Source of the DNA: Patescibacteria group bacterium
GTDB taxonomy: Bacteria; Patescibacteriota; Patescibacteriia; S139-126; S139-133
Direction of reading: 5' to 3'
Assembly (NCBI GenBank): GCA_049604715.1
Contig: JBMYTV010000006.1
Span: 1-63,284 of the forward strand
Length of the DNA stretch: 63,284 bases
Made by a program: the position numbers and the translations under genes. Shown one piece after another: positions 3,240-45,641 of the stretch. Each line of letters starts with the position of its first letter. Within the stretch, counting starts at the first letter, position 1. Below the pieces are notes generated by a model, which was not told the DNA's origin, ran no database searches, and saw nothing but the letters and a program-made list of their open reading frames with translations.

Positions 3240-3241
3240 AT

Positions 3242-12747: not shown

Positions 12748-12961
12748 TGCGCTATGTTTGTAAGTCCGTCATCAATATGATTGAGGTAAGTTTATAGCGG
12801 TAAGGCCACAGACAATTAGTCTAGCCTTTATAGGTGAGATGAACAAAACAGTGGATAGAGTGTGGTAAGAACCGCCTTTCCTAAACTCAGTAGGAATACT
12901 GGGCATGGAAGAAAAATCCCAAGAGTACTCCGCATGAGCTTGCCTCGTAATAAGTTAATAG

Positions 12962-14010: not shown

Positions 14011-14341
14011 TAGTCCTTATTTTTAGTTGTGCAACCAAATCATTTAGATCTTCTATCATTTCAAAATAATCTGAAAATTGTTTGAAGCTCTGTTCATCCT
14101 CTTCATTCTTCGGTTGATAACCACTTAAGGCATCTCTTAAATAACTGTGGTAATGTAAATCTTTAACATCCTCAAGACGACCCTCTAATAGAGCCTGCAC
14201 ATTTGATATGATGCCATCGCTTGTAGTATCTAGCTCCGCTATCACATCTAGCCCTTCTGGCTCGGGTGGAAATTTTGATTGTGTAAATATTTGAAATTTT
14301 GCTTTTAAATCTTCAATGGATTTGCTTGATTTCATAAACAA
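14003..14341 (-). CDS. small immunity-like protein (paralog 1) directly downstream of the Rhs toxin
   Basis: 112 aa, starting 9 nt after the rhs stop codon, the canonical immunity position. Confidence 0.55.
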   Translation of the reverse strand: MFMKSSKSIEDLKAKFQIFTQSKFPPEPEGLDVIAELDTTSDGIISNVQALLEGRLEDVKDLHYHSYLRDALSGYQPKNEEDEQSFKQFSDYFEMIEDLNDLVAQLKIRTND

Positions 14342-14349
14342 GTTATTAA

Positions 14350-28400: not shown

Positions 28401-28989
28401 CGGTATCAAAGCTGAGTCGGTTAGCAAAAAATGCTGACTCAGATTGGAATGCACGATAAGTGTTGTTGTCACCGATCAAAAATACTGCTGGATCATTAGC
28501 ATATTTGATGAGCTGACCTTTAACGTGCCAGTCTGCATTATCAATCATTGCACCCATTGGGTATTGATCAACAAATGCTTGTGATGTTTCAAAAACATCA
28601 CCGAAGTCGAGACCAAGTGCATAAAACACAGTCTCTGAAATAATTGGGTACAAAGTACCATCTGCTACATAGTAAGTGTCAGCCTTGTCAAATGACTTGA
28701 GCAATGAACCACTGCGAGCTTCTGCAGCTGCGCCCATGGTGTATGCAGACAAGTCAGGAACAGTTGTGACGTTATCAAAGCTGTAATTCCATGAATCGAA
28801 AATAGCAGCATTTGGGAAGAGGTGTAATGTAACACCATCTTGGTTTACTACGTATACAGTTGAACTTGAGGAAGATTTGATCAATTCGCCTGCTGCTGCA
28901 TTTGCAAAGTTGGCAGTAAAACCACCAAATGACATTGTAACAGACATAACGAAGGTCAATGTTCCTACAAAGAACTGTCGTAAATTCAT
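25465..28989 (-). CDS. large secreted cell-surface protein with repetitive beta-rich (Ig-like) modules
   Basis: Signal peptide. Three ~55-aa N-terminal repeats (VYVVNQDGVTLHLFPN.. / YYVADGTLYPIISE.. / VFLIGDNNTYRAFQSE..). A long T/S/A/G-rich modular region follows. No enzymatic motifs. Confidence 0.65.
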   Translation of the reverse strand: MNLRQFFVGTLTFVMSVTMSFGGFTANFANAAAGELIKSSSSSTVYVVNQDGVTLHLFPNAAIFDSWNYSFDNVTTVPDLSAYTMGAAAEARSGSLLKSFDKADTYYVADGTLYPIISETVFYALGLDFGDVFETSQAFVDQYPMGAMIDNADWHVKGQLIKYANDPAVFLIGDNNTYRAFQSESAFFANRLSFDTVLTIPDTEVYTPGALVTGFEHGISTPMGVPGGAVTPPPTGSNLTVSLDSSSPAAATVVVDSGATHAQALVPFITVRFSAPADGAVTVTSLRFKRTGISSDTDIQDTYLYEGMERVAFGGSLANNYVTFNNPNGLFTVPAGQSKAITLRIDLNEDASSGQTMAFQLESASDVTASSGAVSGSFPALGATMSTAQASDLGFAIIGGSYTTPSSNDTSIDSGEEDFELWKFTLTANDQDLHIKGLRFTKVGSVDTDDVQNFRLVQGGTELGTVAMMNNDFEVYFDLSNNPFAIDKGESRVFSLRGDLIGGSNRDFKFTFQYRDDLIIEDQSFGVLVPADLSSMDNEWSVVQPSGDYLIGTGSLSIQKAADSPTSQISAGATNLHMGRYEFEATGEDMKVKNLLIAAATSETNGGLDNCRILVDGVQVGSTTDCTEYSSTATVTLGSSFIAKAGQTHIVDLYADAKTSTSTNLQNAETVQVYLATGSSNAQGMQSLSTVNAPASDTAANSLTVSNASLTFSEYTAVGNQTLLAGANDVKIAAIQILSGSSEAVDVDGITITASSTEAGYLQNLKLMMDGQQIGTTKTSPSTSNLFSVNFNVAKGQAKVVELYADLKTTASGTIELGAEGSGTGSVTGNSVTASNVLLQDVTIGSGDLNISVDASSPEASLLVAPSTGQTVAKFKFDATSSDFWLHEFTLIASTSAIDSVSQVSVEYPTESGTATAIGNFGASGIVTFYIQDAPMYIEKDDDAVMTVKVDVASTSGSGGADNDDNLRVGFDVSGTFKAVDSAGTADTTGTSGGAVNEANDLLPNTHQIFKAYPTVAFTSDTPSGTLIPATNSLIAKVQITATGNDDVTFENGDGNTLTFQVSSNGAAAGAADDVITLKDDQGNTLWSTTTGLHENSEFTADFSTKSLEVGQGTSEVIFVYADTSELATSGENIQFWLDDTAGDIDWGINNSGSYNHGDIIFRGDLYGGALATP

Positions 28990-34153: not shown

Positions 34154-35020
34154 TTGACAATAATACATCTTATATGCGTAAATACATGTAGAAGCATAAA
34201 TACAATTTCTATGGAATTTCCTTGCGATGAATGCGGCCAGTATAAAACTCCATCACTTACCATTGATGGAATTGTACTTCATGAAGGCAAGATACTACTT
34301 ATTAAAAGAGGAGTAAAAGATGAAGCTTTTTATAATGAATACGCTCTCCCTGGCGGTTTTGTTGAATACGGAGAAGAAACTGAAAAAGCTACTATCCGCG
34401 AGGTGTGGGAAGAGACTGGCCTTAAAACAGAGATAAACCAACTGGTTGGTGTTTATAGCAAGCCGAACCGCGACCCTAGGCGGCATGTTATTTCAATAGC
34501 ATATTCACTAAAGGTAATCAGTGGCGACATCAAAGAATCATCAGAAACCAAAGATATCTCTTGGTTTGACTTAGATAATCTACCAAAACTAGCCTTTGAC
34601 CACCAAAGAATCATTACAGATTTTCGTGAGAGTAATAAAATGTTTAGTGACTATAACGGATGGCAACTTGATAAAAAATTAGTATTTTGTTCTCATTCAC
34701 GCCATTTCATGCATGCTTCACTTCTGATCTGTAAATATGTAATTGACCAAGGAGGTGTGCCAATAAATTCATTTACCAATTTTGGCTATTTTCTCTACGA
34801 ACTAGTCTCTAGGCACGACATTGCCGAGGGTATAAACAACATCATTAATCGCTGCGATGAACAATGGGTATTTGGCCCAATTGGTGGAGGTGTTGGTATG
34901 GAAATTGAAATGTGTAAAAAAATGGGCAAAAAAATACGCTTTTTTGATATTGAGGAAAATGACAACCCCATGATGATTACCGAAACCACTGAAGAAGCGC
35001 TCAGAAATAAATACCCCTGA
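34154..35020 (+). CDS. zinc-ribbon + Nudix hydrolase fused to an uncharacterised C-terminal domain (start more likely the ATG at 34211)
   Basis: Nudix box GGFVEYGEETEKATIREVWEETGL. N-terminal CDECG. The C-terminal ~120 aa (KLVFCSHS...WVFGPIGGGVGMEIEMC) may have a nucleoside-deoxyribosyltransferase-like fold (weak). Confidence 0.65.
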   Translation: MTIIHLICVNTCRSINTISMEFPCDECGQYKTPSLTIDGIVLHEGKILLIKRGVKDEAFYNEYALPGGFVEYGEETEKATIREVWEETGLKTEINQLVGVYSKPNRDPRRHVISIAYSLKVISGDIKESSETKDISWFDLDNLPKLAFDHQRIITDFRESNKMFSDYNGWQLDKKLVFCSHSRHFMHASLLICKYVIDQGGVPINSFTNFGYFLYELVSRHDIAEGINNIINRCDEQWVFGPIGGGVGMEIEMCKKMGKKIRFFDIEENDNPMMITETTEEALRNKYP

Positions 35021-35048
35021 AAAACCCCGCCACTCAGGCGGGATTTTT
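35021..35048. terminator. bidirectional terminator between convergent operons
   Basis: aaaa-cccgcc-actca-ggcggg-attttt. Confidence 0.7.
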
Positions 35049-35049
35049 A

Positions 35050-36159
35050 TTAAACTTCAATCTGTTCTAAGTACTTAAGTAATATATCATAAAATGTTTG
35101 CAATGACTCTATACTTACCCATTCACCATTATTATGCCAGTCTGCTCCATCCGGCCTGGTAATAAGCACGGGCATCTCTGCGCTTGAGAAGAAACGAGCA
35201 TCTGAGCCACCTGCCTCCACACCAAAGTTCACCTCACGACCTAGAATACCTTCAGCTACGCTCTTGTATTGCTGTAAATATTCGTCATTAAAATCAGTAA
35301 AACAAATATCACCTTGTGCTTGTATTTCAAAGTCAGCATCATGATCCTTAACAACCTTTTTGATAATTTCATACCACTCATCAAATGAGTGCTTTTCTGT
35401 AAGACGAACATCAAAGTATGCTTCGCATTTATCTGGCACTTGGTTGATAGCATTACCAGCCTGTATCTTTCCTATGTTGACTGATGGACGCCAATCATCC
35501 TCTGACTCTGGTTTTGGAAACTGTTTTTGTAAATCCTTATACAGTAAACACACTTTATTAATCGCATTGTCACCAAGCCACGGACGAGAGCCATGAGCAG
35601 CAGTCCCGTGGAGTGTTGCCTTGAAAAATATAAGCCCCTTTTGGGATGTGATAATAGCATCCATAGCACCACCATCAGGAACAATCACAAGCTTTGCCTT
35701 ATACCCCTGCTCGACTAAATACTGAGCTCCATTTTGCCCACCTACTTCTTCATCTGATGTAAGCATAAGCCCTAGCTTGAGCTCAGGTCTAGTCTTGTGA
35801 ACCTTTTGAAAGGCAAGAATACTTGCCGCAACTGAACCCTTCATATCCGCAGCACCACGGCCATACAATTTATCACCTTGTATACGCGGCACAAACTCCC
35901 TCTGCTCAGCTTCAATAACATCCAAATGTCCTGCGAGTAACACATCGAATTCTTTTGTATCGTGCGTTGATGCTACAAGTGACGGTTTATCATTTTGCAT
36001 GTATTTGCTAATTGTAAAACCATTTTCACTCAAATAATTCTCACAAAAATCAACCACATTTTGAAGATGGTGCGGCTTTTGTGCTGTTGACTGAAATAGA
36101 ATAAGCTCTTTTGTAAGCTCAACTATCTGTGTGTGTGGATTGTCTGTTTGAAACATCAT
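35050..36159 (-). CDS. M20-family metallopeptidase/deacylase (ArgE/DapE/LysK-like), paralog a
   Basis: LAGHLDVIEA, GRGAADMKGSVAA and TSDEEVGG motifs. About 50% identical by eye to 40581..41690. Confidence 0.8.
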   Translation of the reverse strand: MMFQTDNPHTQIVELTKELILFQSTAQKPHHLQNVVDFCENYLSENGFTISKYMQNDKPSLVASTHDTKEFDVLLAGHLDVIEAEQREFVPRIQGDKLYGRGAADMKGSVAASILAFQKVHKTRPELKLGLMLTSDEEVGGQNGAQYLVEQGYKAKLVIVPDGGAMDAIITSQKGLIFFKATLHGTAAHGSRPWLGDNAINKVCLLYKDLQKQFPKPESEDDWRPSVNIGKIQAGNAINQVPDKCEAYFDVRLTEKHSFDEWYEIIKKVVKDHDADFEIQAQGDICFTDFNDEYLQQYKSVAEGILGREVNFGVEAGGSDARFFSSAEMPVLITRPDGADWHNNGEWVSIESLQTFYDILLKYLEQIEV

Positions 36160-36170
36160 AAAGCGTGAGG

Positions 36171-37655
36171 TTATTTTGAATAAATGGATTTTAGGTACTC
36201 GATATAGTATTGGGGCTGCATAGCGTCACCAGTTGCATTCCTTAGCAAAGTCTCTGGTGCATACCGTTTACCGTGCTGCCAAATGTGACTACTAAACCAG
36301 TCACGTATAGATGTAAAATCGCCCCCAGCAAAGGCCTGGTCATACTCTGGGTACTCAAGTGTATATGCTTTCCACATTTGTGCAGCCTGTGCAGTACCTA
36401 GGACATAGTTTGGGAAATACCCAAGCATTCCATATGGCCAATGCACATCTTGAAGACATCCTTCACTAAGTGTTTTTGGCTCAGTACCAAAGTTCTTTTT
36501 CATATCTGCATCCCACCTCTTTGGCAAGTCTTCCATAGATAAAGCCCCATCAAGCAGATCTCGTTCAATCTGATAACGAATTGCAACATGTATGATATAA
36601 CCAACCTGGTCACTATTAACACGATTAAGTGAGGGTTGTATGCTTCGTGCATATTTTGCAACCTGCTTTGCGTCAATGTCTTTAGCACGCGGTTCAAACT
36701 CAGCAAGTTCACGAAGTGCATACTCCCAAAATCCATCGCAAAGCATAATATAACTATCAAACAAACGTGCTTGTGATTCATCAATACTAACAGACACAGC
36801 GCGGTCAAGATCTGTATCAGAGTATTCATCAAGTACATACTGGTCATACAAACCATGACCCATTTCATGTATTGCTATTTGAATTACTTTAAACAAGTCA
36901 TCATTTCCAAGTGGAACAAATAGTCTTGTGTCGTGTTTTGACACTTTACGCTCACGTCCATGAACAGCTGTACCTAGCACTCCGCGAGTAAAGTCAAACC
37001 CCATGCCAGCAAGTAGTGTTTCTAAGTAAGCTTTTTTGGTATGTGGATCAAGTTTTATACCCTTTAACGGGTCCGCTACTACCTCACTATGATTTTGAAC
37101 AAGATTCTGCGCAACAGGAAGTAGCTGAGAAAATAGCACCTCAACATCAGCGTAGGTGGTGCCTTCTTCATACACATCAAGTAACACATCATATACAGGA
37201 CGACGAGAGTCAATGATCTGGGCATACTCCCGACTCATAGCAATCATCTCTTCAAAATACGGTGCATACATTCTAAAATCATTTGCTTGTTTTGCTTTTG
37301 TCCATTGTTCAAATCCTTTGGCTTTAATCTCTGTATACTGTTGCACAAACTCTGCAGGTAGGCGAGCTTGTTTGTGATAACTCCGCATTGAGAGCTCTAC
37401 TCCGCGACGATCCGCCTCTGATAGATTTTCACGCTGATCATATAAATCATGCAACGCGCTCACATACTCTGATGATGTGAGAACCTCGTGCATCATACGC
37501 TCAAGCATACCAAACTCATGCGAACGCCTAGGCAGGGCCTGCTCAGGAAGTGCTTGCTCGCGATCCCAAAGCAAGACATCACTAATACTAGCTAGTTTCT
37601 TATACTGCTGTAGTGTTGATCTATATATTTGTAAACTTTGTTGTAGCGGTGACAT
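36171..37655 (-). CDS. M32 carboxypeptidase (Taq-type)
   Basis: HEMGHGLY zinc motif, a DVHW motif, and length and overall pattern typical of the M32 family. Confidence 0.8.
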   Translation of the reverse strand: MSPLQQSLQIYRSTLQQYKKLASISDVLLWDREQALPEQALPRRSHEFGMLERMMHEVLTSSEYVSALHDLYDQRENLSEADRRGVELSMRSYHKQARLPAEFVQQYTEIKAKGFEQWTKAKQANDFRMYAPYFEEMIAMSREYAQIIDSRRPVYDVLLDVYEEGTTYADVEVLFSQLLPVAQNLVQNHSEVVADPLKGIKLDPHTKKAYLETLLAGMGFDFTRGVLGTAVHGRERKVSKHDTRLFVPLGNDDLFKVIQIAIHEMGHGLYDQYVLDEYSDTDLDRAVSVSIDESQARLFDSYIMLCDGFWEYALRELAEFEPRAKDIDAKQVAKYARSIQPSLNRVNSDQVGYIIHVAIRYQIERDLLDGALSMEDLPKRWDADMKKNFGTEPKTLSEGCLQDVHWPYGMLGYFPNYVLGTAQAAQMWKAYTLEYPEYDQAFAGGDFTSIRDWFSSHIWQHGKRYAPETLLRNATGDAMQPQYYIEYLKSIYSK

Positions 37656-37762
37656 ATGAATATACTTACTATTGTACCATTAATACCTTTGAGTAACTCA
37701 AAAACATTATTAGTAGGCTCAGCTTTGCTGAGCCGTTTTATGTTAATTAGACAGAGATACAC

Positions 37763-39043
37763 TTATGACCATTTTCGATAGAACTCATCCGAGACGAAGA
37801 AAACCGGACAGACTCCGCATTCTACATGGTTATTAGCGCCAACGTTGTGCATGGTATTACCATCGCCCTTGTGCATTGCGCGTCTACCAAAGTAGTATGT
37901 GGTATCTTTACCAGTACGCATCTGACGAAGCTCCAAAGCAAAGTGATCACTTCCAACCTGGTTAGGCGTAGCAAAGCGCTCTTGAACATTTGACTGCGCC
38001 AACTGGTTACCGGCCTGCGTTGCAGCTCGCAAATCGCGAATCGACGGTTTGAGATTTAACCCATCACCACCAAATTCATTGGTGGGTTTCATGATGATAT
38101 TTTCCACACCCCCTAATCCAGGTAGAATATCACTTATGAAATAGTGATTCACAACCCAGGAAGGGACAACGCCATCAAGATGACCGGTATGAATCATCGA
38201 GCTTTTTTGCCCAATAAAAAACCATCTTGGATCGGGTGAGCAATTTACGTCAACCGGATTCTTAAAAAAGAAATCGACATAGCGCTCATATACCTCTGCA
38301 CCAGCCGCCTCAATATCAAGTGGCAGCGCTCGCCAGTGAATGCCGCGGATGTAAACCTTGGTACTGTTATCCCTATAATACAACCGTTTTCCTTCGCGAC
38401 GAATTACTTCAAATCCTATAACCGGCGTGCCAAAATAATGCTCCAAGGCAAAATGATCATGCCTTGTTTTTTGCTTTTCCGGTGCCACATCAACAACCAC
38501 ATCAATACCTTCAGTATCACCTTCAGGAAAAAGTACCTCCCTGACTTCCTTGATGTATTCATCCAGTGATGCGTGTCGCCAAAACGGACTTAAATCAGCC
38601 AATGCAGGGAACTCTTCTCTCCATGCTTCAGCCAAAACCAGTAGAAACATTTGCCACCCGGAAACATTGATATGATACTCAAGCATCAATGTCTTCCACG
38701 GCTTCTCTTTCTCTGGACGAACCACTGTATGATCCAAAGTGGCTGTTAGTACTTCTGGACCAGGGTGGTCTATCATATTTGTTTCAGGATATGGACTTTC
38801 TGCCCAATGCTGACGAATAAACTCATCTTGTCCGACAACATCCAAAACACCATTACCTTGTGCATTCATCCGTTCAGCTAAACTACGCCGAAGCAAAACG
38901 GGTGTAAAACCAAAGATATCCCAGGGGAATCTTGATGGGTCAACATTTATCATCCGGCAAGCGCGATCACGTACGCGCAAAAATGCGGCTTCAGATGATA
39001 TGTCTGCGAATAGTTCTTCGAAGAACCGATGATTCATACTCAT
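37763..39043 (-). CDS. ATP-grasp-like ligase (glutathionylspermidine-synthase / circularly-permuted ATP-grasp type)
   Basis: IIMKPTNEFGGDGL (ATP-grasp K-P...G-G-x-G motif) and a C-terminal ...RRAMHKGDGNTMHNV pattern. By-eye assignment. Confidence 0.45.
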   Translation of the reverse strand: MSMNHRFFEELFADISSEAAFLRVRDRACRMINVDPSRFPWDIFGFTPVLLRRSLAERMNAQGNGVLDVVGQDEFIRQHWAESPYPETNMIDHPGPEVLTATLDHTVVRPEKEKPWKTLMLEYHINVSGWQMFLLVLAEAWREEFPALADLSPFWRHASLDEYIKEVREVLFPEGDTEGIDVVVDVAPEKQKTRHDHFALEHYFGTPVIGFEVIRREGKRLYYRDNSTKVYIRGIHWRALPLDIEAAGAEVYERYVDFFFKNPVDVNCSPDPRWFFIGQKSSMIHTGHLDGVVPSWVVNHYFISDILPGLGGVENIIMKPTNEFGGDGLNLKPSIRDLRAATQAGNQLAQSNVQERFATPNQVGSDHFALELRQMRTGKDTTYYFGRRAMHKGDGNTMHNVGANNHVECGVCPVFFVSDEFYRKWS

Positions 39044-39105
39044 GCTACTACCTCGATCTTTTGAGGAATTGAGTTTAAAGGGCTCTTATGTATAACCCCT
39101 ACCAA

Positions 39106-40266
39106 TTAAAGACCCAGCTCAGCAGCGAGCCGGTTATGTGCTTCCATGTACGGATTTCTTCCTGCTTGAAAATCGCGCATCATTCGCATTGCACCATTTT
39201 CTTGATTTTTAACTTGCTGTATCAATGCTGCGTGCTGCGGTTGATACTGAAGTTCATTCATAAATGGTGCTACAAAACGAATCAACCCTTCCAGCGCATC
39301 GCCAAGACATCCTTCCTTACCGCGGTTAAAGGGATTGTAGAAATGAGCATCCATATTCTGCAATCCAAGTGTCGCAATTCCTATATTAACGCGCAGTTTC
39401 TCATCATGTTTAAAGTCATCTTCTGGAACGTCCAAATTAACACCTTCTACAAAAAAGGCATGAAAGAGTGATGCAATAGTTGCTGTCAAAGTCTGCGCTT
39501 CAGACGGCAAGCCAGGCAAATCACAAATGCGGCTTTCCGCAGTATAAATACTAAATCTGTTAAAAAACCACAAACGCGTCCATTGCTGTGCTACTTTATG
39601 CTTTAAAGCATACTCCATCTTCTCCAGAAAACTTTTAACATCCTGAACTTCAGGGGGTATAAAACGAACCAACTGAAACGACAACCACCTCTGCAAACGC
39701 ATTGAATGGTATGAATAACCACACTCAGTGTCATACGAATTTGCAGAGATCGCTGCTAAAAGCGGGGACAGCATATCCATCATCTTCAAAACTCTGATAC
39801 CACGATCAGTAAGCTCTTTCACTCCGAAATGAACGTGGAGAGAAAAAGCATTTGCAGCTTCTAATACTTGTGGTTTGCGATTCTTCAACAGTTCATACCC
39901 CTCGTCAGCAGGTATTCCAGCGAGATGACTCCCAGGTAGCCATGCTACTGGTATCATATTGTATCTGTGCTTCAGCCCTGCTTTGAACAACTGCTCATAC
40001 AAACAGCGAATGCCTTGCATTGACTGTCCGTTCCCTGTCCAAACACTCGGTGTCTTACCTTCTATGGTATGAAACCGCCATTCTGGACATGCTGTCACGC
40101 AGTTACTGCTGTTAATCACTTCCATCACCATCCTTTGACCATCCTCATCCATAGGGGTAATGACTCGTCCATCAGGACTAACAAATGTTACAAAGGGCGC
40201 TTCTATTTCACCGGCAAGCGTGCCTAAAACGTCACTTCCAATAAATTCCTTTCCAGGTAGTGCCAT
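39106..40266 (-). CDS. glutamate-cysteine-ligase family 2 (YbdK-type carboxylate-amine ligase), paralog a
   Basis: AFSLHVHFGVKELTDRGIRVLKMMDMLSPLLAAISANSY matches the GCS2 signature (lHVHvGv....P.LlAlsAnSP). Confidence 0.65.
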   Translation of the reverse strand: MALPGKEFIGSDVLGTLAGEIEAPFVTFVSPDGRVITPMDEDGQRMVMEVINSSNCVTACPEWRFHTIEGKTPSVWTGNGQSMQGIRCLYEQLFKAGLKHRYNMIPVAWLPGSHLAGIPADEGYELLKNRKPQVLEAANAFSLHVHFGVKELTDRGIRVLKMMDMLSPLLAAISANSYDTECGYSYHSMRLQRWLSFQLVRFIPPEVQDVKSFLEKMEYALKHKVAQQWTRLWFFNRFSIYTAESRICDLPGLPSEAQTLTATIASLFHAFFVEGVNLDVPEDDFKHDEKLRVNIGIATLGLQNMDAHFYNPFNRGKEGCLGDALEGLIRFVAPFMNELQYQPQHAALIQQVKNQENGAMRMMRDFQAGRNPYMEAHNRLAAELGL

Positions 40267-40355
40267 ATTTGTATCTCCTATAATTATTTCAACGTGCTAT
40301 TTATTAAACTTTTTTGTTTTTATACAGACACGCATGTGTAGTATGTATACCCTAT

Positions 40356-40390
40356 AAAAACAAAAATCTCGGATCCCTTTTGGGTCCGAG
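40356..40390 (-). terminator. rho-independent terminator ~200 nt downstream of M20 paralog b
   Basis: Minus strand: ctcggaccc-aaaa-gggatccgag followed by atttttgttttt. Confidence 0.7.
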
Positions 40391-40580
40391 TACGTTTTCC
40401 TTAATTTTGTATAGAAACGTTTACACTGACCCAACTACCGGCATAATCAAAATAACCAAGACCAAAATAATAGCTGTCTTAGCTACGATCATGTTGTATG
40501 TAGTGGGTTTTGTAAGCAATTTCGTTTCCATACAAAGCTTAGGATAAAGCATGTATGTAGCTTTGTCAAATTAAACTTAG

Positions 40581-41690
40581 CTAGTTTTCCACAGAGTGGC
40601 AATCTAATAAAAACTTGCTTAGAACCTCATAATACTGATATAACGACTCAAGTTCAATATATTCTCCACCATTATGGATGTTATCACCAACTGGATTACT
40701 TATAATTACGGGCATGCCACGACTTGAGAAATACCGAGCATCAGAAGCACCTGCTTCAACACCAAACCGCACCTCTCTTCCAAGGATAAGCTCGTTTGCC
40801 TTTTTAAACAGTTGTAAATACGGGTCATTAAAATCAGTAAAACACATATCGCCTATGATCTCTATCTCCACCTCTACACCACGCGCGTCACAAATACTAG
40901 TAATTATTCCAACCCACTCTTCAACTTCATGCTCCTCAGTGAAACGCATATCAAGTCCAGCAGTACAGAGCGCGGGTACTTTATTAACAGCTGTACCTGC
41001 ACTTATAGTGCCCATATTAATAGACGGCTTCCAATCTTCTTCAGCAGTAGGACCAGGAAATGCTCTCACCAAATCACCATTAAGACCCATCATGATAGCA
41101 ATAGCATTTTTACCAAGCCACGGACGTGATCCATGCGCTGACTCACCTTTGGCAGTTAATTTAAACCTTATAACCCCTTTTTGAGCAGTAACAATACGAT
41201 CAATATCACCACCATCTGGAACAACAACGACATCTGCTGTGTATTCTTCAGCCTCAAGAAGATATCCCACACCATCAGGACCACCAATCTCTTCATCACT
41301 TGTTAGCATCAATCCTATACTATGATCTGGATAGTTTTGACCATGCTGCTTCATAGCCATCATCAAAGCCGCAACTGGCCCTTTCATATCAAGTGCACCG
41401 CGTCCATATAATTTACCATCACTGATCTTGGGTACAAAGTCTGATTGATTTGCACCTACAACATCAACATGCCCATTAAGCAGAACATTAAAATGTTTTG
41501 TTTTTTTGTTGCTCACAACAATTGATGGGACATTATTGTGCTCATATCGTCTTATGAATAAACCACTCTCCTCAAAAAACTGCGCACAAAAATCTACAAC
41601 ATTATTTAAATGATGTGGCTTATCAGCAGTTGATTGAAACACAATCAACTCCTGGGTCAAGGTTTTAATGTCTTGATATATTTTGTTCAT
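40581..41690 (-). CDS. M20-family metallopeptidase/deacylase, paralog b
   Basis: LNGHVDVVGA, GRGALDMKGPVAA and TSDEEIGG motifs. Confidence 0.8.
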   Translation of the reverse strand: MNKIYQDIKTLTQELIVFQSTADKPHHLNNVVDFCAQFFEESGLFIRRYEHNNVPSIVVSNKKTKHFNVLLNGHVDVVGANQSDFVPKISDGKLYGRGALDMKGPVAALMMAMKQHGQNYPDHSIGLMLTSDEEIGGPDGVGYLLEAEEYTADVVVVPDGGDIDRIVTAQKGVIRFKLTAKGESAHGSRPWLGKNAIAIMMGLNGDLVRAFPGPTAEEDWKPSINMGTISAGTAVNKVPALCTAGLDMRFTEEHEVEEWVGIITSICDARGVEVEIEIIGDMCFTDFNDPYLQLFKKANELILGREVRFGVEAGASDARYFSSRGMPVIISNPVGDNIHNGGEYIELESLYQYYEVLSKFLLDCHSVEN

Positions 41691-41779
41691 AGGCTCATTG
41701 TTATGTATCTCTTCACCTTTGTCTATGCTTGATAAACAAAACTGAAGAGATGGCGTCGATTTTCGACGCCAGATGAAAA

Positions 41780-42931
41780 TTAAGAAGTAAACGTATTAAA
41801 TGCGTACACACGGATAGCATTGTGATCTGCCAGCTGCAGCGAACGAATACGCTCAGCACCGGTTGCGGCACCATCAAGAATAGTTGTCACAAAATCTGTA
41901 CATGGAAGCGCATCATACACATCCACTACTATACCAACAAGCTGGCGCAAGAACATCTCAATCTGTACGCTTTCATTTTGAAAGTTCTGCGTTACAGCAT
42001 CACGCCAATTACCAGACCAATTCGCAAGTTGGATATTCTGCTGATCTAGCATTGAGGGTTCGAATTGCTCGGGATAAAAATCTGGGCGCTGAAAATGAAA
42101 AATAGACATCAGTCGAACCATGAGCTCAGCAATATGCTCTATATGCTGAGGTAAGAACGACATATCTCCCATCGCCAATTCCAATCGATAAAACTCATTA
42201 GTTCCACCATTTGGAATTTGCTTAATCCTTATCCACGGCCACCCTTTGTGTACTATGCTTTCCGGCTTACTTCCTTGAAACGGCATGCCAAATTTGTTGA
42301 TAAATTCATCATAATCATCTAGCGAATCTATCCACAAAGGCTTGATCGTGTGATCAACAAACCGCCAATACATACCACGTTCGCAATGCCCAGTGTCACT
42401 GTACGACGACAACAGCGCCATAAAAGGATTAATAAAAAAGTTAGCGATATTGAACATACGAACAATGTCACTAGCTGGTATCGCAACACTTACATGAAGC
42501 GCAGCATACCTGTTGAACCTGATATTTGCCTGTCGTTTCTGTATAAGCATGTTTTGCCATGCTTCCTGATAGTATCCACGGCCCGCTACCTTTGACACAT
42601 ACTCCTCTGTTACCTCAAAATCAGAATCAAAAATGCCTGAAAATGGTACTACCATAATACCAGTACGATTGAACAGTTCGCGTAATCGGTTTTGAGTCTC
42701 TGTTATAAAGCCAGCAATAGAGTTGAACTCAGTGAAAACGTCGCTTTGGATCTCTGCCTGCAAAGCAAGAAATTCGTAATCAAGCCAATCAGGGCGCTCA
42801 TCTGCATTAAACTGACACAATCGTTCAAACGATAGCAGTTTCCCATTTTGGTCAGTTAGAATACCCTCAAACTCAAATCCGTGATTCAAAATCTGATCTG
42901 GATTTTCCAGACGCGTACGTTGCATTTGCAT
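41780..42931 (-). CDS. divergent GCS2-type carboxylate-amine ligase, paralog b (start revised to MQMQRTR)
   Basis: GFEFEGIL near the N-terminus and YAALHVSVAIPASD...FMALLSSYSD (degenerate GCS2 signature). AAGGAG lies 6 nt upstream of the ATG at 42929-42931. Confidence 0.5.
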   Translation of the reverse strand: MQMQRTRLENPDQILNHGFEFEGILTDQNGKLLSFERLCQFNADERPDWLDYEFLALQAEIQSDVFTEFNSIAGFITETQNRLRELFNRTGIMVVPFSGIFDSDFEVTEEYVSKVAGRGYYQEAWQNMLIQKRQANIRFNRYAALHVSVAIPASDIVRMFNIANFFINPFMALLSSYSDTGHCERGMYWRFVDHTIKPLWIDSLDDYDEFINKFGMPFQGSKPESIVHKGWPWIRIKQIPNGGTNEFYRLELAMGDMSFLPQHIEHIAELMVRLMSIFHFQRPDFYPEQFEPSMLDQQNIQLANWSGNWRDAVTQNFQNESVQIEMFLRQLVGIVVDVYDALPCTDFVTTILDGAATGAERIRSLQLADHNAIRVYAFNTFTS

Positions 42932-43152
42932 ACGTATCTCCTTTTTAATCATGTATGAATATTTCGATGTACTTTTATGTGCTACTATAAATTCTTTAAA
43001 CTTGAAGCAGTACACAAAAAAACTGACCTGTGGCCAGTTGCGCTTTCATCTAAATTTGGGTGATTATACGAAAAAGCTGCTAGCCACGTGCCAGATTAAA
43101 GAAGTAATAAAAGAAAAACCAATTGTTGGATAGCATTTGTTTCATAATGCAT

Positions 43153-43181
43153 GTACTATAACGATGCGTCTCCATATTGTC
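43153..43181 (-). promoter_or_regulatory. sigma-70-type promoter for GCS2 paralog b
   Basis: Minus strand: TTGACA (43176-43181), 17-nt spacer, TATAGT (43153-43158). Confidence 0.5.
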
Positions 43182-43196
43182 AAACATCTTTTTCCA

Positions 43197-43226
43197 CAAT
43201 AAAAAACGCGAGTTATTACTCGCGTT
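43197..43226 (-). terminator. rho-independent terminator after the T-box-controlled gene
   Basis: Minus strand: aaacgcgag-taataa-ctcgcguuuuu. Confidence 0.7.
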
Positions 43227-43231
43227 TTAGT

Positions 43232-43987
43232 TTATAGTGCCTGAGAGACGAGATACAAAACTGCATCAACGTAACTCCGAAGAACAGATAAGTCTTCATG
43301 AGTACCAAACATACGGAACTCAAGTGTATGCGTTGATGGCTTCCATCTTATCCAATCCCAATTATCTTTTGGGTTAAAATTATTCCGATATGTATGACGA
43401 TAAAGCTCGCTGATTGTACTCATACTCGGATGAAACCCAGATTCATGTGTGACCAAAGTATATGCCTTCAATCTTTTGCCTTCAGAATTGTCGCCCAGTT
43501 CCAGCAAATCCCTTACCACTGATTCATTAGCGTACTTAAGAATGCGCACTGCCTCATCTGGCGTAACACCAACATGAATCTGAAACGATGCAACTTGTGA
43601 TGCTGCCACGCGTACACTGTAATCAAGCGTTTGCCATAAGCGTAAGTGACGATCATTGCATGGATTCACAAGCAGCTGCCCAAGTTCATCCTCTGGCACA
43701 AACTCCACATGCATAATAGACGCACCAAATCCGACGGCTGTATCAGAGAGGTAATTACGTAATACTTTAATTTGTGAAAACAACTCATCCACATTACTAC
43801 ACGGAACGCTTTTGACCTCAATTTGGCCTGCAAATAACTCTGTTGAAAACTGTGTCGGAAGTAAATTACGCTCCAAACATCCTTGCACAAGTAACTGCAA
43901 CACATCAGCTACGCGGGGTATAACTATACCATCCTTTACTATAAAGCCCTCATCCTCTATACCAAGAGTTCGAAATGATTGTTTCAT
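43232..43987 (-). CDS. short GCS2-type carboxylate-amine ligase-like protein, paralog c (start revised to MKQSFRTLGIEDEG)
   Basis: TLGIEDEGFIV (GvE.E motif) and SFQIHVGVTPDEAVRILKYAN (HvGv signature). AGGAG lies 6 nt upstream of the ATG at 43985-43987. 251 aa, lacking the usual C-terminal third. Confidence 0.55.
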   Translation of the reverse strand: MKQSFRTLGIEDEGFIVKDGIVIPRVADVLQLLVQGCLERNLLPTQFSTELFAGQIEVKSVPCSNVDELFSQIKVLRNYLSDTAVGFGASIMHVEFVPEDELGQLLVNPCNDRHLRLWQTLDYSVRVAASQVASFQIHVGVTPDEAVRILKYANESVVRDLLELGDNSEGKRLKAYTLVTHESGFHPSMSTISELYRHTYRNNFNPKDNWDWIRWKPSTHTLEFRMFGTHEDLSVLRSYVDAVLYLVSQAL

Positions 43988-44026
43988 ATTTGTCTCCTTT
44001 CGACATATGATTATATGGTAATGAAC

Positions 44027-44316
44027 AAAAAACTTCCATCCTTGTATACATACCAAATAGATACGTATACAAGGACGGAAGCTTTACTCCGCGGTACCAC
44101 CTTGTTTATGTAAAAAAATATCCGCCAGCAGCGGATACATATTACATCACTTTACTGACTCAGTCTCTACGTGAGTAGACGACATCAGATGTAGTTGATT
44201 ACGGGCTACAAACCCCGAGCTATCACACCACACTCTGTATACACACAGTATGTAGCAATAACCATCCATAATCCGCAGACCCAACCCTAAAGCTTTTGAC
44301 TTTAGGATCTGCAGGG
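44027..44316 (-). promoter_or_regulatory. T-box riboswitch leader (tRNA-sensing transcription antiterminator)
   Basis: Minus strand reads ACAAGG-UGGUACC-GCGGAG-UAAAG-CUUCCGU-CCUUGU, i.e. the conserved T-box sequence GGUGGUACCGCG (44089-44105) folded as helix A1 (ACAAGG/CCUUGU), a 7-nt UGGN bulge and helix A2. The competing terminator CUUCCGUCCUUGUAUAC/GUAUACAAGGAUGGAAG has 17 bp including one G-U and is followed by U6 (44027-44081). Stem III candidate at 44119-44137. Upstream helices contain ACAGAGUG...GGUGUGA (AG-bulge/distal-loop-like) and a CCGUAA (F-box-like) element. Confidence 0.85.
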
Positions 44317-44369
44317 ATATTATATTTGTAAATGTATTTCTAGGGTATCAAAAACCAAATACCTGTCAA

Positions 44370-45641
44370 CTACTCATCGAGCACACTGCTTGTGAGCAGC
44401 AAATCAACTTCGCGTATCTCACCACTATTTTGCACCGTCAACTGCACCACATCACCAATACGATACTCTTGCAAAAGTGAAGTTACTGAATGGCGAGCAT
44501 CCACATCATCATCATTAACCTTCAAAACAATATCTCCAACAGACAACCCAGCATCAGCCGCAGGTGAATCAGAATCGATCGCTGTGACTGCATGTTCCCG
44601 ATCACCAAAAACAAGTGCACCTACTTGGAGATCCTCGCTAAGCAGTGTTGGTAAACCAATGGTATGGGCTAAATCAATATATCTAAAACCTACATAAGGA
44701 CGCTCAATCTCTCCACTACGCAGAAATCGCTCAAATACATCCATGAAGTTCTGTGCTGGGATAACTTTACCATCAGTATAATAAAGCCCAATAATAGCAC
44801 CCTCCATATCAATAAGCGGACTACCATCAAAAGCAGCATCAATATCTTCTTGTACCTTTATAAATGTTGCGTACTTTTCAGTAGACAAAAATGTGTCAGC
44901 AAATCCATCTGCAGGCCTATAATACTGGTGCTCTACAGCAGTAATTACTGACTGTGATGATGGACCTAGGATCGTTTGGCCAATAAGAACTGCTGGTAAA
45001 CCTGGATACACATCACCTTCATCAGCAAACTTGATGACTTTCAAATTCTCTGCTGTCACTTTCAAAAAAACTATATCAGAGACAGGATCAAGCACAACAC
45101 GCTCAATAGGAAGTAATGTATTTGATTCTGTAATAATCACAAGCTCTTTATTTGGCTCATCTGGCATACCTGTAACAGTAGTAGCTAACCAACCATCACT
45201 TGTTAAAACAAGCGCATTGCCTACTTTATCTTCTGGACGATACACTTGGTCAACAAGCTCATCTCCGCCACGTTTTAGGTAAATGCCAACAACAACTTGT
45301 TCAATATTTTCAAGTAATGTTTTTGTTTGATTATTAGCTTCTGTGATTTCTTCTTTTTTAAATACAATAACTTGCTCATCTCCGGTTTCTTCATTCTGCC
45401 TCTCAACTAAACGCGTAGCGTCATAACCTTGGTAGTACAAATAATTATTGATGACGAGCTCACCAACAATACCACCTAGTAAACTAATAATAGCCACGGC
45501 CAGAGCATACAATGCAAAACTCCCACGCCGTGAATGTGGTCTTTCGATCATGCCAATTTCTCCCTCATCTTCATACATTGAATCAACAATCTCGTCGAGG
45601 TTTTCTTCTTTTGCGTCTTTTTTTAGTTTCTTCTTTGCCAT
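44370..45641 (-). CDS. membrane-anchored HtrA/DegP-like trypsin-fold + PDZ protein, apparently lacking the catalytic His and Ser
   Basis: TM helix. Protease-fold motifs GNALVLTSDGWLATTVTG (His position is V), DIVFLKV (Asp kept) and AAFDGSPLIDMEGAIIGL (GNSGGPL-equivalent has D in place of Ser). C-terminal PDZ (AADAGLSVGDIVLKVNDDDV). Confidence 0.6.
   Translation of the reverse strand: MAKKKLKKDAKEENLDEIVDSMYEDEGEIGMIERPHSRRGSFALYALAVAIISLLGGIVGELVINNYLYYQGYDATRLVERQNEETGDEQVIVFKKEEITEANNQTKTLLENIEQVVVGIYLKRGGDELVDQVYRPEDKVGNALVLTSDGWLATTVTGMPDEPNKELVIITESNTLLPIERVVLDPVSDIVFLKVTAENLKVIKFADEGDVYPGLPAVLIGQTILGPSSQSVITAVEHQYYRPADGFADTFLSTEKYATFIKVQEDIDAAFDGSPLIDMEGAIIGLYYTDGKVIPAQNFMDVFERFLRSGEIERPYVGFRYIDLAHTIGLPTLLSEDLQVGALVFGDREHAVTAIDSDSPAADAGLSVGDIVLKVNDDDVDARHSVTSLLQEYRIGDVVQLTVQNSGEIREVDLLLTSSVLDE

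Follow-up and report, generated by a model that had tools for sequence, protein, structure and literature searches.

The closest studied analogue of the locus described here is the hmrA-ldmS operon of S. aureus, in which an M20D carboxydipeptidase is paired with an ATP-grasp L-Asp-L-Met ligase under S-box riboswitch or CodY/CymR control, and where the paradox of a ligase, LdmS, being induced while its substrate is scarce has already been noted (PMC9486568). As to leader-peptide attenuators, pheL/pheA, ilvL/ilvGMEDA, and the leucine-rich ilv leader of S. aureus serve for comparison (PMC3082878, PMC5794164, PMC1262725), while among T-boxes those of the transcriptional type usually require a Stem I platform (PMC7583486). 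With the same logic present in hmrA-ldmS (PMC9486568), and with amidoligases linked in conserved gene neighbourhoods being established comparative genomics (PMC4431377), an earlier note on this DNA went too far in recognising no described pathway here.

The window, by which we mean the whole 63,284-nucleotide stretch analysed (contig JBMYTV010000006.1, from an uncultivated Patescibacteria group bacterium), contains all seven minus-strand genes that the note had reported, each at its reported position and correctly classified. We read the region best as a variable, lineage-specific island of ATP-dependent amide ligases beside metallopeptidases, an explanation that as a whole we hold at a little under even confidence. 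The cluster is not a single T-box operon. Instead, there are three units, each with a separate leader predicted to sense amino acids, as judged from the terminator after GCS2-c and the strong promoters at 43183-43155 and 40569-40541. Unit 1 runs from a short-Stem-I T-box through the mini-GCS2-c to a terminator, unit 2 from a promoter through a leaderless ORF of 21 codons, which encodes WFFFYYFF, and then an attenuator to GCS2-b and M20-b, and unit 3 from a promoter through a leader ORF of 36 codons, rich in Ile/Leu/Val, and then a terminator to GCS2-a, the ATP-grasp, M32, and M20-a. As a point against this tidy three-unit picture, M32 and M20-a may have a promoter of their own. The features are as follows.

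44068-44237, minus strand: T-box leader of unit 1 (Rfam RF00230 match, sequence, and fold)
44026-44085, minus strand: T-box terminator hairpin, a stem of about 20 bp with a U-run, overlapping the 3' half of the antiterminator
43232-43987, minus strand: GCS2-c, a predicted 251-aa "mini" YbdK/GCS2 carboxylate-amine ligase
43203-43228, minus strand: intrinsic terminator at the end of unit 1, an 11-bp stem and T-run directly after GCS2-c
43155-43198, minus strand: unit 2 promoter, TTGACA-17-TATAGT (11/12 matches), with TGTGGAAAA upstream at 43190-43198
43080-43145, minus strand: leaderless aromatic leader ORF, MKQMLSNNWFFFYYFFNLARG and stop, with eight consecutive aromatic codons
43013-43094, minus strand: unit 2 attenuator RNA, with hairpin 1 at 43094-43080, antiterminator GUGGCUAG:CUGGCCAC, and terminator at 43039-43021 plus T-run
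41780-42931, minus strand: GCS2-b, 383 aa from an ATG with a GGAG Shine-Dalgarno, highly divergent and GCS2-like
40581-41690, minus strand: M20-b, an ArgE/DapE-type M20 metallopeptidase/deacylase (Pfam M20, 102 bits, and M20_dimer)
40541-40593, minus strand: unit 3 promoter, TTGACA-17-TATCCT (10/12 matches), with TGTGGAAAA upstream at 40585-40593
40421-40531, minus strand: leaderless 36-codon Ile/Leu/Val leader ORF, METKLLTKPTTYNMIVAKTAIILVLVILIMPVVGSV and stop, with a run of nine Ile/Leu/Val
40356-40390, minus strand: unit 3 leader terminator hairpin, CUCGGACCC/GGGAUCCGAG plus U-run
39106-40266, minus strand: GCS2-a, a predicted 386-aa YbdK/GCS2 carboxylate-amine ligase
37763-39043, minus strand: orphan ATP-grasp ligase, modelled in the circularly permuted glutathione-synthetase/glutathionylspermidine-synthetase clade
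36171-37655, minus strand: M32 carboxypeptidase, Taq-type, with HEMGH
35050-36159, minus strand: M20-a, an ArgE/DapE-type M20 metallopeptidase/deacylase (Pfam Peptidase_M20 and M20_dimer)
35026-35042, strand. : bidirectional terminator closing both the island and a convergent NUDIX gene

The T-box that had been proposed for GCS2-c was borne out, and it governs this gene only, GCS2-c then having its own terminator. While its RF00230 score of 39 bits lies far below the gathering score of 93, the match is significant (E 3.3e-7 locally and 3.8e-5 for the whole window), and the element carries the AAGGUGGUACCGCG core with an antiterminator/terminator pair. Its parts are a short Stem I, in which the distal platform is absent, a Stem II-like hairpin, a Stem III, and the bulge UGGUACC in the antiterminator. 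The specifier is ambiguous among AUC-A in a side loop and GUA-G and UUU-G in the apical loop, with Ile (AUC then A) probably the one to favour. The UGGU of the bulge implies discriminator A73, which excludes tRNA-Cys, and this, along with leaders rich in aromatic and branched-chain residues, tells against the thiol-like metabolite that the note had suggested.

Among the three GCS2 proteins, Pfam GCS2 recognises GCS2-c (31.2 bits, cut-off 21) and GCS2-a (39.1 bits), for which hhalign gave 94.7% (residues 7-228 against 4-232 of a 363-aa GCS2) and 90.5%, respectively. GCS2-c amounts to the catalytic core, without the roughly 130-aa helical domain at the C-terminus, and retains the ExE, E..E, H, and E.R motifs; all core motifs are retained in GCS2-a. 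GCS2-b, which most likely starts at 42931 (a correction of an earlier start), has no match in Pfam and weak matches to NCBIfam YbdK (E 5e-4), and its predicted membership of GCS2 is by profile-profile comparison only, where hhalign against a diverse GCS2 profile gave 95% probability, E 3.6e-8, and a score of 63, as against 15.8 +/- 2.8 for 40 shuffled versions. At the predicted catalytic sites of GCS2-b, Ala stands in place of an Arg and Ser in place of the second His of HxH, and given these changes it may possibly be no ligase. Since no pair of the three paralogs shows significant BLASTP similarity, they are very divergent, just as had been described.

In the unit 2 leader, the stop codon of the aromatic ORF lies inside hairpin 1, and the classical 1:2, 2:3, and 3:4 alternative hairpins are found. 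Constrained folds of this leader gave the terminator with a ribosome at the stop codon and the antiterminator with one stalled at the aromatic codons, and the same switch was seen for three leaders (L082_aro, L082_bcaa, and L082_first) of L082, a syntenic relative whose flanking genes are 45-82% identical to those of the window. The match of the attenuator to Rfam Phe_leader is weak (E 0.067), and minimum-free-energy folds of the window's Ile/Leu/Val leader gave no convincing antiterminator. Both leader ORFs appear to be leaderless, their ATG lying exactly 9 nt downstream of the -10 box, and they hold the sole 8/8-aromatic and the sole 8/8-Ile/Leu/Val stretches of eight residues among the window's intergenic small ORFs. 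Moreover, L082 retains both ORFs in the same promoter-ORF-hairpin-terminator layout: the aromatic one as the homolog MQKVLNKNWFSFYFFMTG, the Ile/Leu/Val one with 36 codons and with its hydrophobic run and a Pro in matching places. Conservation of the peptides extends beyond the hydrophobic runs, and the unit 2 attenuator is conserved with one-sided stem changes. The motif TGTGGAAAA precedes all five island leader promoters (two in the window and three in L082); these three are its only matches in L082, and L091, a close relative, has none.

A very improbable reading is that the two small ORFs encode RiPP precursors or scaffold peptides, which the ligases would extend or modify and M32 and the M20s would trim, with the hairpins setting the precursor-to-enzyme ratio. 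A small ORF that follows a promoter and is separated from enzyme genes by a partial terminator is also a classic RiPP layout, the peptides are conserved outside their hydrophobic runs, and peptide modification by ATP-grasp and GS-like amidoligases is known (PMC4431377). Against it, the stop codons lie within hairpin 1 and in the folds the position of the ribosome decides between the alternative pairings, the leader composition mirrors that of pheL and ilvL-type leaders, and a T-box holds the equivalent position in unit 1. Cores rich in Asp/Glu/Lys/Ser/Thr are likewise missing, as are a dedicated leader peptidase and an exporter, and a PADLOC scan returned no match.

In L082, the genes behind the leaders are a classical ATP-grasp (ATP-grasp_3) with an M20, and a GNAT with an M20, whereas in L091 the island is absent and its site holds a C26 peptidase only. 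The distant CPR contig L088 encodes a C26 peptidase, two GCS2 proteins, a dipeptide epimerase (L-Ala-D/L-Glu-type), and two M20s, adjoining Mur ligase, MraY, FtsW, and MurG. In Bacteroidota, the order R2K ATP-grasp, GCS2, GATase1, and orphan-type ATP-grasp family occurs in 29/80 loci. Neighbourhood conservation, which the note had put forward as a check, is partial: the theme is kept in one island-bearing syntenic relative (L082) and one distant contig (L088), which form the base of our comparative support, while the gene content is not. Gene content at the locus differs among three relatives. The BshB1-like gene, which had been considered as possibly related to the cluster, was rejected as a member, being present in L091 and absent from L082, and is a backbone gene. 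Co-location by chance of functionally unrelated genes, with fortuitous small ORFs and hairpins, was already disfavoured and is barely credible; it would accord with this variable content and with most M20-a homologs standing alone, but not with the leader ORFs, promoters, hairpins, and upstream motif conserved in L082, the ligase-hydrolase pairing recurring in L082, L088, and Bacteroidota, or the run of eight aromatic codons unique among the window's intergenic ORFs.

As for the orphan ATP-grasp, we found no match in Pfam or NCBIfam, itself as the only match in a k-mer search, 118 distant matches at about 22% identity, and a profile match to YgiC (E 4e-4). Its alignment-based AlphaFold model (pLDDT 81, pTM 0.84) matched 3n6x (E 6e-14), 2hgs, 1m0w, 7uk8, 2io7, and 9cjn in Foldseek, circularly permuted ATP-grasps that include eukaryotic glutathione synthetases, YgiC/YjfC, GspS, and Cp1B, such that the protein once called "ATP-grasp-like" models as a glutathione-synthetase/GspS-type ATP-grasp. 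It lies 62 nt from GCS2-a with no terminator in between. This adjacency, together with the resemblance of the model to glutathione synthetases, a conserved Bacteroidota operon of GCS2, gamma-glutamyl-hydrolase-like GATase, and ATP-grasp, and the C26 peptidases of L088 and L091, would suit a dedicated small peptide metabolite, with GCS2-a and the ATP-grasp acting like GshA/GshB to yield a gamma-glutamyl tripeptide, M20/M32 degrading or recycling it as a Dug1-type M20 dipeptidase does Cys-Gly, and the leaders merely coupling production to precursor supply. We regard this as unlikely: there is no Cys link, tRNA-Cys having U73 rather than the A73 read from the T-box bulge, NCBIfam glutamate-cysteine ligase scores are all far under cut-off, the island is missing in L091 and composed differently in L082, and leaders of the starvation type are an odd control for making a product that uses up a scarce amino acid.

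The M32 assignment holds, with Pfam at 429.8 bits and 256 bits against the B. subtilis M32 structure 3hq2, and the enzyme is canonical. M20-a scores 206.8 bits against TIGR01910, slightly below the cut-off of 217.6, and its best PDB match is 2rb7, a protein without known function. The two M20s, formerly described as clear recent paralogs, are 54% identical and reciprocal best matches among 5.8 billion proteins; on sequence comparison they are paralogs and each other's closest relatives, though not especially recent ones. In CPR genomes, the homologs of M20-a are mostly solitary, with cell-envelope genes often nearby, and some sit beside MraY-like, glycosyltransferase, or MurB genes. Salvage or remodelling of cell-wall peptides, that is, of muropeptide-derived gamma-D-Glu peptides from a host or the cell's own wall, could draw on these neighbours, on the Mur-associated cluster of L088, and on DapE and ArgE being the top-scoring named families for the M20s. 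Yet we consider it quite improbable, as no epimerase, amidase, or Mur gene lies in the window's island, the amino acids that the regulators are predicted to sense, aromatic and branched-chain ones, are not peptidoglycan constituents, and DapE equivalog cut-offs are not reached.

To the gene families, RNA elements, and ORFs that we observed, and their conservation in a relative, we add the inference that the leaders act as starvation sensors. Each cassette would lie behind a transcription attenuator of its own that reads how far the tRNAs for hydrophobic amino acids are charged: a T-box reading an A73 tRNA, most likely Ile, in unit 1, a Trp/Phe/Tyr-rich leader peptide in unit 2, and an Ile/Leu/Val-rich leader peptide with terminator in unit 3. 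Scarcity of the matching charged tRNA would allow read-through and turn the unit on. More tentatively, the enzymes may manage hydrophobic amino-acid supply via small peptides, in that M20 and M32 would release free amino acids from di-/oligopeptides or gamma-glutamyl/N-acyl conjugates, and the ligases would form di- or tripeptides, possibly gamma-glutamyl, to buffer or trap hydrophobic amino acids. Starvation-induced ligase and dipeptidase cassettes for hydrophobic amino-acid homeostasis are, by analogy, a reading to which we give somewhat less than an even chance; against it stands the paradox of a ligase that consumes amino acids yet is induced in starvation. Of the note's interpretations, the general one, that of enzymes making amide bonds beside enzymes cleaving them under RNA control that responds to amino acids, stands with three leaders in place of one, and the best-fitting hypotheses are gamma-glutamyl-type salvage and a scavenging of peptides in tune with tRNA charging. 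The island is a testable lead to the role of YbdK/GCS2-type ligases.

Compared with LysW/LysX/LysK, which the note had invoked, the island also pairs an ATP-grasp ligase with an M20 deacylase, but the analogy fails on the carrier, there being no LysW-like small ORF in the island, nor a kinase, reductase, or aminotransferase, and the ATP-grasp is of a different clade. Unlike Puu-type gamma-glutamylation (PuuA/PuuD), the island is without tailoring enzymes such as oxidases or dehydrogenases. Amidoligase gene neighbourhoods, for which Iyer, Abhiman, Burroughs, and Aravind (2009; cited in PMC4431377) reportedly predicted roles in making secondary metabolites or in protein modification, similarly link ATP-grasp, GS-like COOH-NH2 ligases, and GNAT in operons with hydrolases, and the L082 island holds all three ligase classes; those neighbourhoods are not known to have been linked to amino-acid-sensing leaders.

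With pheL/ilvL attenuators, the island leaders share a run of regulatory codons in a short ORF, a stop next to hairpin 1, antiterminator and terminator helices that exclude one another, and a U-run. Yet what they precede are ligase/peptidase cassettes in place of biosynthetic operons or genes for aminoacyl-tRNA synthetases, both ORFs seem to be leaderless, and the window's Ile/Leu/Val leader is without a clear antiterminator. To our knowledge, no such attenuators have been described in this lineage. The T-box resembles RF00230 members, especially the short or intermediate Stem I types of actinobacterial ileS (PMC7583486), in core sequence, in its UGGN bulge, in the purine motif beside Stem III, in an antiterminator helix that competes with the terminator, and in a short Stem I whose candidate specifier is AUC-A. 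It differs in being of the transcriptional (terminator) type yet without the distal platform, in its low bit score, and in preceding a GCS2 ligase gene and not a synthetase, biosynthesis, or transporter gene. Finally, as in hmrA-ldmS, where an ATP-dependent amino-acid ligase and an M20 dipeptidase share a transcript, putative ligases stand with M20 enzymes under amino-acid-responsive control, here predicted, that is de-repressed on limitation. In contrast, the island's ligases are of GCS2/YbdK-type and GS-like ATP-grasp, not LdmS homologs, its M20s are ArgE/DapE-like, its sensors are a T-box and hydrophobic leader peptides in place of sulfur amino-acid signals, and three cassettes together with an M32 enzyme are found in a CPR-like host.

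The seven minus-strand genes between 35050 and 43987 lie in the order that the earlier note had described, namely GCS2-c, GCS2-b, M20-b, GCS2-a, the ATP-grasp gene, M32, and M20-a. However, the cluster as a whole is not one T-box operon: a strong terminator (43228-43203) stands immediately 3' of GCS2-c, and the genes that follow have separate promoters. Regulation is thus that of three units, not one: the T-box with GCS2-c (unit 1), an aromatic leader ORF with GCS2-b and M20-b (unit 2), and an Ile/Leu/Val leader ORF with GCS2-a, ATP-grasp, M32, and M20-a (unit 3).

Leaders, promoters, and Pfam-matched GCS2 genes of the island
44237-44068, minus: T-box-like leader of unit 1 (Rfam RF00230)
43232-43987, minus: GCS2-c, 251 aa, Pfam GCS2 (PF04107) at 31.2 bits
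43183-43155, minus: promoter of unit 2, near-consensus (11/12 matches)
40569-40541, minus: promoter of unit 3
39106-40266, minus: GCS2-a, Pfam GCS2 (PF04107) at 39.1 bits

The leader of unit 1 scored 39 bits, below the Rfam gathering score of 93 but significant (E-value of 3.8e-5 for the whole window), and contains the T-box core AAGGUGGUACCGCG along with a terminator of ~20 bp (44085-44029) that overlaps and competes with the antiterminator bearing the UGGN bulge. Moreover, a purine motif flanks Stem III, as has been described for T-boxes (PMC7583486). Stem I is shortened to ~44 nt (30 nt versus 89 in the model), with the distal tRNA-elbow platform being absent, and this makes the element atypical, because T-boxes that act on transcription normally need the platform and a terminator type with a truncated Stem I is unusual (PMC7583486). 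In the internal loop, the 3' side carries AUC (Ile) followed by A, the best candidate for the specifier; two alternative candidates, GUA-G (Val) and UUU-G (Phe), lie in the apical loop. A UGGU bulge calls for a tRNA with A73; by established tRNA identity rules, the tRNAs for Ile, Val, Phe, and Leu are compatible with this, and those for Cys, Gly, Ser, and Asn are excluded. Because the bulge is UGGU, a T-box specific for Cys, and with it a thiol-specific one, was ruled out by this discriminator rule. Rfam searches of the two other gaps in the window and of L082, a syntenic relative with a different island, returned no riboswitch, and matches to Phe_leader and Trp_leader were insignificant. Of all Rfam families, only the LOOT RNA (RF03000) exceeded its threshold in the window; it was found at full length at 8780-8903 (minus) with 93.7 bits against a gathering score of 46.4.

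In unit 2, the leader ORF MKQMLSNNWFFFYYFFNLARG (peptides are given here up to their stop codons) starts with an ATG at 43145 (minus), 9 nt 3' of the -10 box, and its stop codon falls within a small hairpin that is followed by a terminator (43039-43021). The leader ORF of unit 3, METKLLTKPTTYNMIVAKTAIILVLVILIMPVVGSV, likewise has its ATG (40531, minus) 9 nt 3' of the -10 box, with a terminator at 40390-40356. As both ATGs come exactly 9 nt after the -10 hexamers, their placement implies that the two ORFs would be translated in a leaderless or near-leaderless manner. In L082, the aromatic leader ORF begins 8 nt after the -10 box, and the Ile/Leu/Val leader ORF ~20 nt after it. No small intergenic ORF in the window other than the leaders of units 2 and 3 has a stretch of residues that is aromatic, or Ile/Leu/Val, in eight positions out of eight. 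Constrained folding of the aromatic leader gave the terminator when the ribosome was placed at the stop codon, and the antiterminator GUGGCUAG:CUGGCCAC with its extensions when the ribosome was stalled on the aromatic codons. Such switching between antiterminator and terminator with ribosome position was seen in all three leaders of L082, and the Ile/Leu/Val leader of the window yielded only a weak candidate antiterminator.

By analogy with pheL and ilvL-type attenuators (PMC3082878, PMC5794164, PMC1262725) and with T-boxes, we infer that the leaders would sense starvation for hydrophobic amino acids. Taking the small ORFs as RiPP precursors or scaffold peptides agrees with the layout, but less well with stop codons embedded in the switching helices, with a composition like that of pheL and ilvL, and with the presence of a T-box at the corresponding place in unit 1. 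Additionally, all five leader-ORF promoters of the two islands have TGTGGAAAA at a distance of 4-15 nt upstream of their -35 box (window, 43190-43198 and 40585-40593, minus; L082, 3258, 4735, and 7436, plus), and this motif could serve a common regulator or act as an UP-like element. L082 has no occurrences beyond these three, and the motif is missing from L091, an island-less relative; the window has five matches (0.9 expected), the others at 38100, 55025, and 56257 being differently arranged.

Conservation of these arrangements was examined in L082, a 15.3-kb Logan contig that we reached via a 48%-identical M20 homolog.

Flanking genes of L082 and their identity to the orthologs in the window
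Membrane protein, 45%
HtrA-like, 50%
NUDIX-DUF7768, 66%
HTH_17, 82%
ECF sigma, 53%

Between HtrA and NUDIX, the island of L082 holds a GCS2 gene (391 aa), an ATP-grasp_3-type ligase paired with an M20, and a GNAT-type protein paired with a divergent M20. A promoter, MQKVLNKNWFSFYFFMTG, a hairpin, and a terminator precede the ATP-grasp/M20 pair, and a promoter, the 36-codon MHNSAVKIIDVLEKQIKMLGILVIILILVAPWAVGI, and a terminator precede the GNAT/M20 pair. The aromatic leaders of the window and L082 can be aligned as DNA, with one-sided changes that preserve the helices. Hence, the leader ORFs, their structure, and the promoter/leader/terminator arrangements are conserved in one relative, which is also the only island-bearing one in the collections searched, and one ligase superfamily has been replaced by another behind conserved leaders. 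A third leader ORF in L082 (3328-3485, plus), MIPQSDNRVNKDKLAVTAYWYESGESGSFS, precedes the GCS2 gene in the position taken by the T-box in the window; it comes with a terminator and with an antiterminator, GAGUCGGG:CCCGACUC, whose 8 bp pair perfectly. Single-sequence PDB searches with the L082 ATP-grasp and GNAT proteins were uninformative.

The metagenome-assembled genome 'bacterium isolate 8_bin.40' (L091) has the same backbone as the window, including the BshB1-like gene, although its NUDIX-HtrA interval contains nothing but a gene for Peptidase_C26 and an ORF of 95 aa. This synteny marks the island as accessory and variable and places BshB1 in the backbone. The Peptidase_C26 is of the gamma-glutamyl-hydrolase type (8025-8732, minus; 154 bits), and as even this island-less relative holds such a gene, an enzyme acting on amide bonds is always present at the locus. 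BshB1 itself is well assigned (TIGR04001, 259.9 bits against a cut-off of 182.5), but the functional link to the island that had been suggested for it was rejected on synteny, given its presence in L091 and its absence from island-bearing L082. Conservation of the neighborhood is thus partial: leaders and flanks are retained in L082, but the gene content differs there and L091 has no island. The NUDIX-DUF7768 fusion (window, 34211-35020, plus; L082, 10080-10883; L091, 6829-7650) is unusually conserved in the three relatives (66-72% identity), and its gene is convergent with the island, a terminator being common to both.

Farther afield, the names attached to the nearest homologs of M20-a are Patescibacteria, Dojkabacteria, Peregrinibacteria, Gracilibacteria, or Absconditicoccus, and on this account the organism is probably a CPR bacterium. 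The 2584-aa ORF (14350-22104, minus) and the 1174-aa ORF (25465-28989, minus; no Pfam match) near a Wzy_C and TPR protein (22312-24477) represent gene content typical of CPR-like cell-surface loci. No additional ligase and M20 islands emerged from the contexts of close M20 homologs and of P0003 (a weak GCS2-a match), nor any relatives from a scan of JGI metagenomes with the NUDIX anchor. In L088, a distant CPR contig, the gene order over 2947-19006 is Peptidase_C26, GCS2, a 631-aa unknown, GCS2, MR_MLE (dipeptide-epimerase type), and two M20s, with MR_MLE overlapping the first M20; the remaining M20-a homologs examined are solitary, without a ligase island. Next in L088 are a Fem/ATE-like GNAT, a Mur ligase, MraY, a LysW-like Zn-ribbon ORF, PALP, ATP-grasp_3, FtsW, and MurG. 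Salvage of muropeptides is suggested by this L088 gene set lying beside mur/dcw genes and by M20 homologs that sit among cell-envelope genes, though the amino acids sensed here lend it no support. Anti-phage defense was also considered and dropped, as no PADLOC model matched any of the nine proteins scanned.

Turning to the ligases, GCS2-a and GCS2-c both exceed the Pfam GCS2 gathering cut-off of 21 bits, and so two of the three memberships claimed in the earlier note stand on Pfam. GCS2-b had no Pfam match and only weak NCBIfam matches to YbdK (E-value of 5e-4), and its family placement comes only from a profile-profile comparison, in which 206 columns aligned with a probability of 95%, an E-value of 3.6e-8, and a score of 63 (40 shuffles gave 15.8 ± 2.8, with a maximum of 23.4). 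The GCS2 profile used here was a mix of Bacteroidota, CPR, and window sequences. Pairwise comparison of the three paralogs gave no significant similarity, in agreement with their having been called very divergent. We then inspected the core motifs (GxExE, E..(6)..E, HxHxG, NS, and ExR) and found both N-terminal glutamate motifs in all three proteins and the full set intact in GCS2-a. While GCS2-c has Q,H where H,H is expected and retains E.R, GCS2-b shows H,S (the second His of HxH is gone), E.A (the Arg is gone), and YS for NS, and because of these substitutions it may be catalytically altered. The same Arg-to-Ala change occurs in one GCS2 of L088. Both GCS2-a and GCS2-b are full length (two-part architecture of ~360 aa), unlike GCS2-c, which aligns to 4-232 of a 363-aa reference and lacks the C-terminal helical domain (~130 aa). 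The most likely start of GCS2-b is 42931, which has a GGAG Shine-Dalgarno sequence. Against the glutamate-cysteine ligase equivalogs (NF010043, TIGR02048, and others), the best scores were 30-40 bits versus cut-offs of 176-425. Single-sequence PDB searches with the three proteins gave nothing informative, and a k-mer-seeded homolog search with GCS2-a gave one weak match.

The ATP-grasp protein matched no model in Pfam (GSP_synth, CP_ATPgrasp, and GSH_synth_ATP included) or NCBIfam. A k-mer-seeded search recovered the query alone, a single-query genome scan had no match, and a single-sequence PDB search was uninformative. With HMMER, however, 118 distant relatives were found among 1.8 billion cluster representatives (~22% identity, typically ~397 aa), of which only four of 35 matched GSP_synth, and weakly, and the family profile reached YgiC at an E-value of 4e-4. 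AlphaFold prediction from an alignment of 34 relatives gave a pLDDT of 81.3 and a pTM of 0.84, as compared to a pLDDT of 36 from the single sequence. Foldseek matched this model to 3n6x (E-value of 6e-14) and 2hgs (1.5e-11), and also to 1m0w, 7uk8, 2io7, and 9cjn, with query-normalized TM-scores of 0.52-0.61. Included among these matches were human, yeast, and plant glutathione synthetases, E. coli YgiC and YjfC, glutathionylspermidine and trypanothione synthetases, and the fungal E-64 ligase Cp1B. Going by the predicted model, the protein is at the fold level a circularly permuted ATP-grasp of the glutathione-synthetase/GspS/YgiC clade. The "ATP-grasp-like" label was therefore right for fold and clade, in a family that is uncurated. 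The family-invariant Lys, Glu, and Arg columns (K280, K319, E371, and R373) are conserved; the putative activity would be ATP-dependent carboxylate-amine ligation.

Relatives of this protein are widespread in Bacteroidota, where an operon comprises a RimK/R2K-like ATP-grasp, a canonical GCS2 (NF010039, 537 bits), a class-I GATase-like hydrolase, and then the window-type ATP-grasp. Of 80 Bacteroidota loci (L002-L081), 29 have all four genes in this order and 33 have a GCS2 gene. Examples are L020 (4963-9200) and L076 (5936-9197), and the GS-like ATP-grasp of the operon (~397 aa) is without a Pfam or NCBIfam model. The operon has the look of a peptide or gamma-glutamyl pathway not yet described in Bacteroidota. 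The window locus defines an uncurated ATP-grasp family that is also found in this conserved operon. For the island itself, GCS2-a and the GS-like ATP-grasp could possibly form a glutathione-like pathway to a gamma-glutamyl tripeptide, but there is no link to Cys, and both the leaders and the variability of the island would be left unexplained.

Among the peptidases, M20-a and M20-b are both above the Pfam cut-offs for Peptidase_M20 and M20_dimer, share 54% identity, and are reciprocal best matches among 5.8 billion proteins. Neither DapE nor ArgE equivalogs were reached (NF006399, 208 versus 381 bits; TIGR01910, 206.8 versus 217.6), and the best PDB match of M20-a was 2rb7, a structure of unknown function. 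M32 covers positions 3-488 of the 489 in the Pfam profile (429.8 bits), carries HEMGH (HEXXH) in its translation, and scored 256 bits against the 3hq2 structure. Genome scans gave no match with M32 as single query, and with an M20 alignment the patterns were too generic, returning mostly unrelated M20s. A TACAAT box is located ~15 nt upstream of the M32 ATG, which lacks a Shine-Dalgarno sequence, and M32 and M20-a may be transcribed from their own promoter. After GCS2-b (41740-41770, minus) and after the ATP-grasp gene (37716-37734, minus) there are stable hairpins that lack an immediate U-run, and these may be partial terminators or RNA-stability elements.

With regard to function, the observation in the earlier note is upheld and refined, and its interpretation is supported in part. 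A LysW-type carrier, one of its proposals, finds no candidate, as none of 44 small ORFs (30-120 aa; 34900-44400) has two CxxC motifs, as in a Zn-ribbon carrier, or an acidic tail. More weakly than for starvation sensing, we infer that the cassettes manage hydrophobic amino acids via small peptides, with peptidases that would release these amino acids from peptides and ligases whose products would be di- or tripeptides, possibly of the gamma-glutamyl type. What YbdK/GCS2-type carboxylate-amine ligases do physiologically has long been a blank, and here three GCS2 ligases sit behind sensors that name relevant amino acids and so narrow the substrate panels. Moreover, the swapping of non-homologous ligases behind conserved leaders offers natural evidence for equivalent jobs with the M20 partner. 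The lineage, probably CPR, has no amino acid synthesis of its own, and aromatic and branched-chain (hydrophobic) amino acids are those that cross membranes most readily. A bolder and, in our estimate, rather improbable extension is that the cassettes drive amino acid acquisition with ATP in a reduced-genome symbiont, the ligase trapping, the peptidase releasing, and three ligase superfamilies being interchangeable. Uncharged tRNAs would then cause the ligase to trap aromatic or branched-chain amino acids inside the cell as charged gamma-glutamyl or dipeptide conjugates, from which the paired M20 or M32 peptidase would free them for translation. Such 'vectorial ligation' would be a cytoplasmic counterpart of the gamma-glutamyl cycle, with the unrelated GCS2, ATP-grasp, and GNAT superfamilies swapping freely behind the same sensors.

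To our knowledge, attenuator and T-box regulation is essentially uncharted in this lineage, and the locus would now add to it attenuators with leaderless leader peptides and a minimal T-box of the transcriptional type. The closest studied case is hmrA-ldmS from S. aureus, in which S-box or CodY/CymR control acts on the genes for an M20D dipeptidase and an ATP-grasp L-Asp-L-Met ligase, and its logic would extend well beyond staphylococci. The authors of that study raised the paradox of a ligase being induced under limitation (PMC9486568), and the island shares it. That ATP-grasp, COOH-NH2 (GS-like), and GNAT ligases are combined in operons to carry out successive peptide ligations is likewise a recognized theme of comparative genomics (PMC4431377). 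While operons of a ligase and an M20 under amino acid control are therefore already known as a kind, what is notable here is the triple, differently specified gating, the swapping of ligase classes, and the probable CPR lineage.
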